Below the pieces are notes generated by a model, which worked only from the letters and a program-made list of their open reading frames with translations, ran no database searches and was not told the DNA's origin. DNA of 62,675 bases, filler included, from Sphacelaria rigidula (lineage: Eukaryota), in the NCBI GenBank assembly GCA_964200075.2. It is 5 parts of 5 records of this genome, joined end to end, with 100 filler letters (N's around TTAATTAATTAA, not from the genome) between each part and the next. Parts side by side here need not be neighbours in the genome. Positions count along the whole stretch, not along the records: positions 37,667 to 50,121 come from CAXNAA020003753.1; 4 more parts are not named here. One strand, given 5' to 3'. Of this stretch, positions 11,730-60,000 are shown in pieces (within the stretch, counting starts at the first letter, position 1; every line of letters begins with the position of its first letter). A program made the translations under genes and the position numbers.

Positions 11730-12030
11730 TGTAGGGTATGAGATTCCCTACAGAACTTACAGAAATATCGGGTACTGGTTTGAAAGTCATACAGAAATTG
11801 CAAAACTGTCGGGTACCGGTTTGAAAGTCTCACAGAAATTACGGAACTTGTCGGGTATGGTATGGAAGGCTTACAGAAAAACCGTACCGGCAATCGGGTG
11901 TTTCTTCAAGAGCACACCCACCCTTCGGGTACGAGTAAATATCCTGTACATAACTCACAGAACTGTCGGGTAAGGGAATAGGGGGCTTACAGAACTCACA
12001 GAAACTGTCGGGTAGGGTATGGAGGTTGCA
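11730..12030. repeat. Degenerate tandem repeat of about 40 bp (acagaa...tgtcgggta..ggtat), probably the interior of a non-autonomous DNA transposon
   Basis: Recurrent 'cagaa...gtcgggta' units spaced about 40 bp apart. Confidence 0.6.
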
Positions 12031-38297: not shown

Positions 38298-40119
38298 CAC
38301 CCTGGACAATACAATATGTTTTCAATATATATTAGTCGACCATATTGGAACTTTGCGGTATATTGCCGGCGTTATTGATGATTGATTGATTGATTATCTC
38401 ACATTAGCTGATTGCAACAATCCAGCCCGTGGTCAGGAGCAGCAAAAATAGAGCAGAATAATCAAAAATACAAAAATAGAAAGAAAGGAACAGAAAAACG
38501 ACAGATATATATTGGTACCCTTGGACTTGGACTGCACACATATTGCGCGCCCGAAATATATGTACATATATTGATGTCCTGGGACTGCATACATATTGCC
38601 CGCCCAACATATATTAGTACCGTGGGGTTGAACACATATTGTTCCATCAATATATATATATATATATATTGAGGCAGTGTGGACGACGGCAAATTGCACG
38701 ACCAATTCATATTAGGGTCGCATTGGTGAGAACTTGTTGACCGGTCAATATATATTGGGTCTGCGTGGGTGCCAATGTATTGGCCGGTCAATATATATAT
38801 TGGGTATTATAAATATGGTGTATGCTTTGAGAAAGATCCAGACGCGATGGATGCCGGAGCCCGTGCAGATTGGGAAACACTTCGAAGAGAGCCGCAGAAG
38901 TTCGCGTGAATGGCTACGAAGAGTTGTCGAATTCGTTATATATATATATATATACTGGTCAGAAAATATGGAGCTAGAGGAGGCGACCCGGGTATGTATG
39001 CCTTTTGATACCTATCTGGCCACCGGTACGGGGCCGCCCATCCCCTTCACAGCATGTAATATATCTTGGCTAAACATAACGACGACATAAAACGCGGGTC
39101 GACATGCCTCTTTTGGTGGCACTGTGGTCACCGGTGCTGTGTTGCTTACACCCTGGACAATACAATATGTTCCAGTATGATAGCAATACTTTGTGTTGGA
39201 GACAGCGCAAATACTGTCCTTCCAATATATATATTGTGTTGGGATGTTCTCGGAGACATTGAAGCAACAACATATATTTCTCGTGTCATGATCGTGAAGT
39301 AACGCATGACAAAACATATTGGACATACATTTGCTCCGGGAACCAAACATTCAATATATATATTGTGCATGCTGGCCGTGTGTGTTTCGAAAAGTAAATG
39401 AATATTGAGTCGAAGCGATGCGTAGCATATTGTTGCCATAATATATATATGTATATATATATTGAACACCAACCATGCAAACGTGTTGTTTTTTCAGTAT
39501 ATACTGCGCACGCTCATCGCATTGCTATTGTGCAGCCAGTATATATCGAACACGCTCGCGGAGGAATATATTGAGCGTTTTCGGCATGTGGTGATACATC
39601 TTTCAGAGGCGTCCGCGAACATAGAACTGCCCACTATACTAATTTCAATACACTTTCCAATCTGCTGTTGAAAATCAATGTATATATATATATATTGCTA
39701 CACCAATATGTATTGTGACCATCGGTTTCCTCGTGTATTGTCCGCCCAATATATATTGGACGCATTGACGCACGGCATATTGGGGCGGCAATATATACTG
39801 ACGCTTCGGGTGTTGAGTATATTGAATCATCAGCATAAATGTTGACCTCGTGTGGCAGCCAATATATTACTCGACAAATATACATTGGTGTCTTACCGCA
39901 CCAACATGCTACTCGGCCAATATATATTGAGGAGGCGCGTGTCGTGATATATTGTTCTGTCGATATATATTGCATGTCGCGAGACTTGACATACTGATCG
40001 CACAACATATATTGACCCTCTCTCGTGCCATCATATTGCTTGCCCAATATATACTGACCACCCAACGCGTCGTCATATTGAGCGGGCAGTATGTATTGCA
40101 TGTTGTATTGTCCAGGGTG
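38298..40119. mobile_element. Non-autonomous TIR element (CACCCTGGACAATACAA termini, possible TGCA TSD) with a phased internal motif array
   Basis: The 17-bp TIRs are at 38298 and at 40103-40119, with a third TIR copy at 39149. TGCA flanks both ends. The interior has repeated ATATTG-N6-CAATATATATTG units. CAC...GTG termini are typical of the CMC (CACTA/Mirage/Chapaev) group, but this assignment is an inference. Confidence 0.75.
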
Positions 40120-40129
40120 TGCAATATTG

Positions 40130-40560
40130 TGCGGGGTGGAGAACCTCAACTCCGCACAATGGGGATGATCGTACTACTTAGTGTTTTAATGGTGAGACAC
40201 CCACGAGGCAGTGTATAAGCCGTGGCTGTCTCTGGAAGTGGCGATACCAGAAAATGAAGCAACTCATCGCAGGCTGTCATCCATATGCGAGGTAATCAAG
40301 ACGCTTCGGACCGAACAATCGTAGCAGGATGCAGCTCACCCTTCATGCGACTCCCCAACACATCACGGCGCTTCGCGCTCGGTGATTGATTGCGAGCCTG
40401 GTCCGACCAAACCCTGCGTGCTCCGTCCCGGCTTCGCAGGGATACGAGGTCAATGGTCATGTGACTACGACATGCAATAGCATGCTTACGCCTCCTCATC
40501 GTAGGATCACGCCATCCTCGTCCTTCCCATATCTCTCGCTCTCTACGTTTTGCCTCGCCA
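40130..40560. repeat. High-copy repeat, same family as the ends of contigs 1 and 2
   Basis: Matches 24775-25011 and 12330-12456. Confidence 0.8.
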
Positions 40561-41244: not shown

Positions 41245-41312
41245 GGGGGGCGTACTCATTTGTTGCTTGCCTTAGTCATTTGACCATTGACCACGCATCC
41301 CTTTCGAGACGG
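41245..41312 (-). mobile_element. 3' end fragment of the LINE family at 48150-50040
   Basis: Near reverse complement of 49980-50045 (gtctcgaaagg.atgcgtggt.aatggtcaaatgactaa.gcaagcaac.aatgagtac). Confidence 0.75.
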
Positions 41313-57000: not shown

Positions 57001-60000
57001 GCAAGCCTGCAGCAGCTGAGGCGATCCTGTTGGCGCCATAAATGTGCTGTACATCAGAAACGTCCAGAATTTGGTCACGACGAAGCGCCAGGCCGCACTT
57101 TTGGTACCAAGAACAAAAATCGAGATTTTGTCCTCGACAGCACTTGACAAAACCTCGTCTTCGTCATAAACATGATACAGAACTGTACGATACAACAGTA
57201 CAGTACAGTGCAGTGAAAGTGCCCGACGTGGCGTCAGACTACCTGAATGCCGCGTGTTATAATAGTGCTCCATACCAGCGTCAACCTGTGCCGTCAAAAT
57301 GTCCCTACAAAACGAGCTGGATCAGGAAAGAATTTCCACTGGCGGTTGAACCGTTTTGCTGTGCTTGATTTTAGGATGTTAGACTTGTGTTAGGGGCTGA
57401 TGTCCTCGACACGAACTTTAGATAATCAATCAGGGGTCTGTCGGGAGAAGATTTTTCAACACGTAGCCCCCCCCCCCCGCCCCCGCCCCGCCCGGAGGGC
57501 AATTTTTCACAGGCACCGTAGGTAAGGTAGGTAGGTACCGGTATTTGGGATATCTCATACCCTACTGATACCGGTCCGATCGGGTATTTTCGAATGTCAT
57601 ACCTACGATACCCACGATACCACAGTATTTCGAGATGTCAATATGTACCGTACCTGCTCTATTGGGTATTTCCAAAACTCATACCTACGATACCTACGAT
57701 ACCACTATTCCGAGGTTTCAATACCTACCGTATCTGCTCGATCGGGTATTTTCAAATGTCATACCTACGATACCACGGTATTTCGAGATACCACTACCTA
57801 CCGTACCCGCTCAATCGGGTATTTTCAAAACTCATACCTACGACACCTACGACACCACGGTATTTCGAGATTTCAATACCGACGGCACCCGCTCAATCAG
57901 TTTTTTTTAAAAGTCATACCTACGATACCCACGCATTCCACGGTATGGGATACCCCGGTATTTGCCTGGGGCACCTTCGGTACGGTACCTTACGTACGGT
58001 TCCCGTCCAATTTTTCGAAAATTGTCATGATGTGTCTTAATTTTGTTTGCGAATTATTGTTGAAGAAATTGGTTATGAAACACTGACAAACACCGACAAG
58101 TCTGATCGGCATTGCGCGGTTCGTATACTTGCTTCTGCTCCTTGCCCGCTCTGTCCCGATGACCTCGGATGCCGGCCACGCGTACACACATGTATGCACA
58201 CCAGCGCATGGTAGCGACAGCCTGTAGCCAAAGAAGCAACATCATCTCACGCCTCGCCAAAGTTTCCCGGGCCACTGGTAGGTACTCGAGGCACACCACA
58301 CGGAACATGATCCCATAAATGTAAACATCTTTTATGGCAGTCACAAATTACAAGTCGGGAAACGCCTGCCCCCAATTTGACCCAAATCGGGGAAGCTTAC
58401 GATGGTATGTCACGATTTGAGAACGGTTTCCCCCAAATCTGAGCCCAGATCGGGGGAAAGTCGCGTCCCCCCAAATCTGTAGGGAGTGACGTACCTACAC
58501 TGACTGATGGTGATAGGGCAACAGGCGTTTGACATTTTTGTACCCGCAGAAGCAGACAGTCTCGTGACAGCACAGGCCGTGCCTGCCTACGCCAGCTGCT
58601 GAAGCAGCTTCGCACAGGGTTTGACAAGCGGATAAGAAGTGTTCACGCCGTATCCTGCGGCGATGGTAATATTCAACATTTCATGCTACACTGCAGTGCC
58701 GGTCGCCCCGGTGGCTCAGTTGGTATCTTTGAAACCTTCTTAAGGCTGGGTTGTCGGTTCAAATCTCGGAGCGATCTGGGATTTTTTTGTCACACAGTGC
58801 CCAACAGTGGAGAGCGACTGCGCCGTGGGTACACAGTATTCGACATCATGGTCGACGAGGGAGAGGGATCGCTGATCCCCTCTCGAGATTAAAAATAAAG
58901 GCAAGCACCGCAGAAGGAAGGTGGAGTACAAGAAGAAGAAAAAAACTGTGTTGGACCTCCTCCTGTGTGACTCCGGCCGGTGTGCTCACATATACCGAAA
59001 GGTTTAGACCGGCGTCTAGAGTAGAGGGGATGTCAACACACACAACACACTGAGCTGTTGTATTTATATCATTGTAAGGAACGGTACTGTACTATCCTTC
59101 TCCGCTGTCGCTGTGCTTGCAGGGTGACGTACGACACTGCACTCGTGAACTCTTCTCGCACACTGTTCTCTGTTCTGGAAATACCGACTGTACCATCATG
59201 TATTACCACACGGCATTGCCGTGTACTGTACTACCCTGTATTATACCCTAGGCTGCTACGGTACTACGGTATGACGCTGCTCTTGAAGGACGATTAGCTG
59301 CCTGCCTGTTTTTCGGCTTCGCTGCGAATGCGATACCACACCTCTGCACAAAATGATCCTCCGTGTACAGAACTATTTCAACGAATCTGTGGAACCATGA
59401 TGGGGTCTCTACAGATCTGACTTTCGCAGATATGAGTCACCCCAATTTTGCACAGATCGGGGTATCTGCAGATTCTGGACTTATCCCCATAGAAAATGGT
59501 TTCACATCCGGCCTAAGTGATGAGCTTGGGAGGGCGGCGTATCGGCAATCTCAGCGGTCTTCATGCAAAGGATCTCTGTACACGGCAGCGGACCGCATCC
59601 GCAAACGCCTCGACTATTAACTAGGGAGCAGAAGGCTGGGTACCCCCCCCTCCCCTCTCCTCAACTCAACTTTTCGATCTTGGGGCCTACGTATCCCGAA
59701 ATCTCTTTCGACAGACCCTTGCACCAGTACGCGGGAAGTAGCAATGATTCCCTGGAAAAAAAAAGAGACCCATCAAAAATTTCTGAAAAAAGAAATATAG
59801 TCACTCGTTGGGAAAAACAAAACTGGGAACTTTTTGTGAAGAATTTTCAATTCGCTAGTAGGCGGTCCTTCTAAAAATTTCGACTGAAAAATCCAAAATT
59901 GGGCAGGGCATTGAAGTATTTGTGTGATACCACTGCACCCTGCCGTTTAACTGATACAGGAGACATCGTACAGGGCGGGAGGTAACGAGTTCGCAGCCCG

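Follow-up and report, generated by a model that had tools for sequence, protein, structure and literature searches.

Does a regularly interspaced palindromic motif with a different spacer in every unit, found in the genome of the brown alga Sphacelaria rigidula, collect short foreign sequences, as its CRISPR-like layout might suggest, or does it belong to a transposable element? The array lies in the window, a stretch of 62,675 nucleotides joined from five parts of the genome assembly GCA_964200075.2. We propose, with a probability of about 72%, that the array belongs to a multi-copy non-autonomous transposon, likely of the hAT type, and that its units are putative transposase-binding sites which would have been multiplied by tandem duplication and kept in phase by selection. 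This reading draws on features of the sequence and on analogy with elements studied elsewhere.

The array is real and beyond chance expectation. Its unit can be written as ATATTG-N6-CAATATATATTG-N18/19, with linkers of 6 and 18–19 bp. The copy in the window has 17 units with at most three mismatches over the 18 motif bases, compared with 0.025 on average and never more than 1 unit in 200 dinucleotide shuffles. The rest of the window (60.8 kb) contains one unit at the same threshold. The right-block cores start at 39704, 39747, 39789, 39831, 39876, 39918, 39961, 40003, 40045 and 40087, which agrees with the first-pass annotation except for the shift of one position from 39875 to 39876; the core at 39831 is decayed (14 bp). 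The units reported in the same orientation at 38500–38800 and 39200–39570 were also seen, with the extents given in Table 1. Several cores of the left block are lengthened by TA slippage in this copy. The blocks form direct repeats across both arms, with no mirror-image arrangement. In the family consensus of 1,647 bp, to which 25 of 39 copies (each 1.5–1.85 kb long) align end to end at 90–95%, there are 25 cores in blocks of 7, 8 and 10, and the half-site CAATA occurs 78 times. Tandem Repeats Finder did not call the array in the window, which is consistent with its divergent spacers. Ordinary tandem repeats are located at 57608–57929 (period 82/153), 31146–31334 (period 63) and 11749–11879 (41 bp).

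Table 1 Features of the window copy (positions in the window)
Feature	Position	Strand	Remark
Left target-site duplication copy, 8 bp, CAATATTG	38288..38295	.	Identical to 40122–40129
Left terminal inverted repeat, CACACCCTGGACAATACAATATG	38296..38318	+	24 bp in the family consensus; two CAATA sites inside
Left array block, 7 units	38360..38803	+	Consensus period 43 bp
Copy-specific insertion of ~130 bp, another high-copy repeat with a (TGAT)n end	38374..38504	.	Inside the first unit; missing from the consensus
Relic of a ~125-codon frame	38811..38927	+	Frame longer in the parent form; one stop here
Internal copy of the left end	39147..39171	+	Fixed family-wide, usually as the mutated form TATACCC
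Middle array block, 8 cores	39211..39549	+	Consensus period 42–43 bp
Right array block, 10 units	39692..40098	+	Consensus period 42–43 bp; orientation as in the left block
Right terminal inverted repeat	40099..40121	-	22 of 23 bases match the left repeat
Right target-site duplication copy, 8 bp	40122..40129	.	Equals 38288..38295

The array is carried by a non-autonomous DNA transposon of 1,826 bp (38296–40121) with the ends CACACCC...GGGTGTG. The element bounded by terminal inverted repeats (TIRs) that had been annotated in the first pass is therefore confirmed, although its true ends lie 2 bp further out. The TIR measures 23 bp in the window copy and 24 bp in the family consensus; the ends are marked by the sequence CACACCCTGGACAA. 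A 17-nt core of the TIR occurs 267 times without mismatch in the genome of 244 Mb (control, 0). We sampled 20 loci by TIR position alone and 20 best BLAST hits together with the window copy, and paired ends were present in 39 of these 41 loci (40 fetched plus the window copy). A target-site duplication (TSD) of 8 bp with at most one mismatch flanks 25 of the 39 pairs, and in 16 of them it is exact. With the same tolerance, none of the 39 showed a duplication of 4, 7 or 9–12 bp and three showed one of 3 bp; exact duplications of 2, 3, 4 and 5 bp were found 1, 1, 0 and 0 times. Among the 14 loci without an 8-bp TSD are composite loci and cases in which an end was paired with the internal end copy. 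The preferred target, nAAnnTTn for this family and its sister MITEs alike, matches neither the Ac pattern nTnnnnAn nor the Buster pattern nnnTAnnn, a difference that counts against the explanation proposed above. In public contigs, the depth of the element is high relative to its flanks. The internal copy of the left end was not seen to act as an end since its upstream flank is identical in all copies.

The insertion in the first unit of the window copy was recognized in public contigs by the joint 38372>38505 and by a depth peak of its own. An independent insertion of ~130 bp with a (CCAT)n tail is present near the left end of another locus (L039), again in the first left unit, and both insertions, with their tetranucleotide tails, look like truncated 3′ ends of retroelements. 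Outside the TSD, the left flank (38266–38295) resembles the left end of the element (GGACAA...CAATATGTTTTCAATAT), as if the window copy had inserted into, or next to, a decayed end belonging to its own clan. A very high-copy repeat, the deepest stretch in all four public runs, starts at the right TSD (40124–40527), and 40438–40477 and 41263–41302 form an inverted pair of 83% identity. At 37728–37817 there is a near-perfect palindrome of 90 bp (45-bp arms, no loop) whose depth in public contigs is very high; it probably represents a further small repeat family. The scaffold gap at 37568–37666, with the linker TTAATTAATTAA between runs of N, leaves the array unaffected, as it lies on the next contig.

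The TIR is shared by a larger clan. Two types of sister MITEs of ~138 and ~170 bp (L145–L164, L193–L222) have the same TIR, with 317 and 804 further exact end matches, respectively, so that, counted over three patterns, the clan has no fewer than 1,388 exact end matches. These MITEs are hairpin-like, contain CAATAG/CTATTG sites and were amplified without the 42-bp array, and the array is therefore dispensable for this type of TIR. Longer forms exist as well. A copy of 3.6 kb (L040) has the spacers of the 1.65-kb form in unchanged order, which indicates that the latter arose from a longer parent by internal deletion and that the array is older. The parent forms (L040, L306, L307 and L310–L312) contain 1–2 kb of extra interior with a frame of ~125 codons ending in a C-x4-C motif. 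This frame (P0019, from L306) matched no Pfam family and no longer homologue; four of its eight representatives appear to be fragments of the same repeat and the other four are unrelated repetitive proteins. An assignment to DUF4371, one of the weak Atlas leads (0.80 on 17% of members), was not counted. Overall, silent changes were no more frequent than expected (0.279 vs 0.280). In L312, the most distant copy, there were 24 silent and 26 replacement changes together with in-frame indels, and such indels between the parent lineages hint at a coding past. Its tail survives in the centre of the 1.65-kb element, and the frame may be the dead first exon of the transposase. One of the parent forms (L311:1–630) also has tandem cysteine/histidine repeats of ~38 aa (KRCGDEGC...FCSEHA), which we take to resemble EsV-1-7 repeats.

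In the mechanism that we propose, the units would have arisen by tandem duplication, and a transposase supplied in trans would contact each CAATA half-site through its N-terminal DNA-binding domain. The palindromic pair and a third site 6 bp away would be repeated on one face of the helix, so that a multimeric transposase could load cooperatively. Lineages keeping the motif and the spacing would have transposed better, while the letters of the spacers drifted. It counts against this explanation that the short sister MITEs spread without the array and that many copies have lost whole units, either before or after moving. The phased protein-binding scaffold suggested in the first pass stands as far as the TIR element and its phased, binding-type array are concerned, and binding is ascribed to it here by analogy. 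The motifs, being AT-rich and phased, might instead serve as recognition sites for a host factor or influence the structure of DNA or chromatin through bending, nucleosome placement or escape from silencing, with no transposase bound. Such a role would suit the spread of the sister MITEs without an array, the position of one block in the middle of the element and the common orientation of both arms. We nevertheless consider it unlikely since the TIR contains the CAATA half-site twice and the sister MITEs have it in their subtermini, the middle block follows the internal copy of the left end, and the binding of transposases to such repeats has been documented for Hermes, Muta1 and Galileo (PMC10368747; PMC5499845; PMC3688188).

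Judged from its ends and from the length of its duplications, the transposon probably belongs to the hAT superfamily. The TIRs of hAT elements are short (10–25 bp; PMC3942097), and the consensus TIR of 24 bp falls within this range. The 8-bp TSD typical of hAT elements was found in 24 of 34 pairs of ends of the sister MITEs in addition to the 25 of 39 pairs of the family itself, and the numerous CAATA sites correspond to the repeated short subterminal sites of hAT elements. In the table of Ectocarpus elements, hAT-2_Ec32 is an autonomous element of 8,945 bp with 21-bp TIRs and the termini CACAC-GTGTG, and it is the only family with these termini in the parts of the table covered (PMC12477816). 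This match comprises five terminal bases and the TIR length, and the TSD of hAT-2_Ec32 is an assumed one, which weakens the case. The Sphacelaria genome contains 139 matches to the hAT dimerisation domain (PF05699), and a hAT protein of this genome, which is 100% identical to a record of Sphacelaria rigidula, has relatives from Ectocarpus and Ascophyllum, in agreement with a brown-algal host. The termini CAC...GTG, a feature of CACTA/EnSpm/Chapaev elements, are also present, and the first-pass annotation had placed the element in that frame. Ectocarpus EnSpm families, which begin with CAC, make 2-bp duplications (PMC12477816) and the TSDs of the CMCT clade measure 2–5 bp (PMC12730594), whereas the duplication here is 8 bp long, and CACTA/EnSpm is therefore excluded. 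A MULE or foldback identity was rejected as well, since long (>100 bp) mirror-image TIRs are lacking, the TIR being 24 bp long and the arrays direct.

It is improbable that the element was moved by another superfamily with 8-bp TSDs (KDZ, P-like, MULE or an unclassified clade). The lack of a hAT partner and the occurrence in Ectocarpus of KDZ families with 8-bp TSDs, a feature which the element shares, and tandem-repeat termini, and of divergent P-like families (PMC12477816), speak for such an origin. However, in the table parts covered, the KDZ termini of Ectocarpus are GGGG-/CAGTA without clean short TIRs, P elements have CAAGG with a 7-bp TSD and MuDR elements GGGCG with a 9-bp TSD, and CACAC-GTGTG is confined to hAT-2 (PMC12477816). 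The Sphacelaria genome gave no match to PF18758 (KDZ) or PF21787 (P), but control searches were equally silent and Pfam may miss algal KDZ and P proteins. The 19 MULE loci yielded only MITE-type or lone TIR-like matches, and neither these loci nor one BED locus had the ends of the element.

A long copy with the same TIR and a transposase gene, the search for which the first-pass annotation had recommended, was not found around ~50 of the 139 PF05699 loci, within partial flanks and a fragmented assembly, and this also counts against our explanation. The TIR scan covered the top 20 PF05699 loci, 20 loci related to L089 and 20 further downstream stretches. Two leads (L076 and L089) were rejected, one as a broken 170-bp MITE and the other because it lies inside a 426-bp repeat, which several contigs share together with its flank. 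The TIR-like sequences near hAT domains (L076, L089, L125, L271 and L272) were all MITEs, MITE remnants or parts of other repeats. No tblastn match was obtained between the hAT proteins from the protein comparison and the copies of the element, and no Pfam match with the 19 longest open reading frames of the window. None of the viral (28) and metagenome (23) TIR matches contained an array unit; one metagenome locus had a loose inward pair of TIR matches. These viral and metagenome matches were taken as chance, and no viral locus matched a hAT protein query.

The most regular property of the array is its spacing. All 22 intervals of the consensus measure 42 or 43 bp (11 each). This length corresponds to about four turns of B-DNA, from which we infer that consecutive motifs would be exposed on the same side of the helix. 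Copies that differ from the consensus by ~7% have a changed unit length in 92 of 455 intervals, mostly due to TA slippage in the core (114 indel events). The per-site difference among copies is 0.051–0.055 in the motif and 0.067–0.069 in the spacers, a small, purely descriptive difference in counts that ignore the shared ancestry of the copies. The spacers were described in the first pass as different in every unit, unlike an ordinary minisatellite, but they are measurably similar. The mean identity of the trimmed long spacers is 0.287 compared with 0.262 after shuffling (reached by 4 of 2,000 shuffles), and within blocks it amounts to 0.45 in the left, 0.28 in the middle and 0.29 in the right block (null 0.26). 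Adjacent spacers are more alike (0.385) than non-adjacent spacers of the same block (0.298; p = 0.012). By these identities, the spacers are decayed tandem copies. Because most of them are near saturation and yet all 22 consensus intervals remain unchanged beyond one base, the spacing was likely filtered, i.e. likely selected in the transposing lineage. A neutral old minisatellite, with motifs homogenised by slippage or unequal exchange and no selection on spacing, would also account for spacers that are decayed relatives and for the changes among the copies, most of which are whole-unit deletions (42, 43 and 129 bp) plus one local duplication. We regard this as very improbable: it is already strained by a consensus that kept its period despite the altered intervals at ~7% divergence, and by middle and right spacers whose identity of 27–31% is near the floor of 26% with the period still kept.

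The alignment of copies that had been recommended as a check showed that the spacer order is fixed. Out of 550 spacer slots in 25 full copies, 537 were syntenic, 13 were missing (mostly through whole-unit deletions) and none was new. As most of the 25 aligned copies were chosen by similarity, which biases this count, the genome was also searched with the motif alone. Among 100 listed of the 1,051 matches, 98 carry a consensus spacer (assessed by eye) and the other two (C124 and C575) represent a longer, older form of the family, the spacer of which shares 14 of 19 bases with the seventh left spacer of L040. The array is inherited as a fixed component of the transposon, and its spacers are not acquired. 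The idea of a CRISPR-like array gaining short foreign sequences at one end, to which only the layout lends itself (a conserved motif, near-unique spacers and a regular period), has practically no probability left, since no slot is new, all 100 listed motif matches are explained by the family and the spacers are homologous to their neighbours. Fixed spacer order and decayed tandem relatedness of the spacers, which the first-pass annotation had named as marks of an ordinary subterminal repeat, were both found in substance, and the array is probably a subterminal-type repeat of a non-autonomous hAT transposon and no memory array.

A false lead, a eukaryotic CRISPR-like layout, is thus removed as a case of spacer acquisition. 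The array instead offers a natural example of putative binding sites at transposon ends between which the spacing appears to have been conserved rather than the sequence. Tentatively, the 25 three-site motifs placed at four turns may be a molecular ruler, a track along which a multimeric hAT transposase would polymerise or wrap the ends; selection might then act on the spacing and not on the spacer sequence. If true, the ruler would be a naturally evolved regular form of the scattered hAT subterminal repeats, and the element a ready substrate for studying how higher-order transpososomes read their ends. How transposases of the hAT type apart from Hermes form multimers at the transposon ends is described as an open question (PMC10368747). 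Strict phasing predicts that the addition of 5 bp disrupts function and that the addition of 10 bp does not. The MITE clan with the shared TIR matters for the annotation of the Sphacelaria genome. No description of the family itself or of a phased hAT array with a strict period was found in the open literature, with Repbase, Dfam and most subscription papers outside the search. The TIR and core strings are absent from the five supplementary files of PMC12477816, any TE sequence library being outside these files.

The array is most likely a regular version of the known subterminal repeats of hAT elements and MULEs, with binding ascribed by analogy to the systems compared here. The element resembles hAT-2_Ec32/hAT-2_ESi in its CACAC-GTGTG termini, its short TIR (21 bp there, 23–24 bp here) and its brown-algal host, although the two can be compared only by listed termini (5 bases) and TIR length (PMC12477816). 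It differs in that hAT-2_Ec32 is autonomous, 8,945 bp long and present in one intact copy with an assumed 8-bp TSD, whereas the Sphacelaria element is non-coding, 1.65 kb long and multi-copy, with the 8-bp TSD observed (PMC12477816). CACTA/EnSpm elements have similar CAC termini and repeated subterminal motifs but a TSD of 2–3 bp instead of 8 bp. Galileo of the P superfamily also has secondary transposase sites in tandem repeats far from its ends, but it has long foldback TIRs and a THAP transposase (PMC3688188); no P domain was found here, with control searches silent too. Muta1, a MULE of Aedes aegypti, has regular 12-bp repeats with variable linkers, more copies of which result in more binding and excision (PMC5499845). 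Like our element, Muta1 has an array in which a conserved motif recurs regularly between linkers that vary, and its TSD measures 8–9 bp, but it has mirror-image TIRs of 145 bp and linkers of 3–4 bp, in contrast to the TIR of 23–24 bp, direct arrays and linkers of 6 and 18–19 bp in Sphacelaria (PMC5499845). The BED domains of Hermes bind cooperatively to two subterminal repeats that form a quasi-palindrome, and in Tol2 a palindrome is accompanied by a third site at a distance of 10 bp (PMC10368747). Like the Sphacelaria element, these systems carry short repeated sites close to their termini, among them a palindromic pair with another site nearby, in an asymmetric arrangement at the two ends. 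The sites of Hermes are 4-bp words scattered irregularly (PMC10368747), whereas the Sphacelaria array repeats its 18-bp three-site motif 25 times with a strict period of 42/43 bp and covers most of the element.
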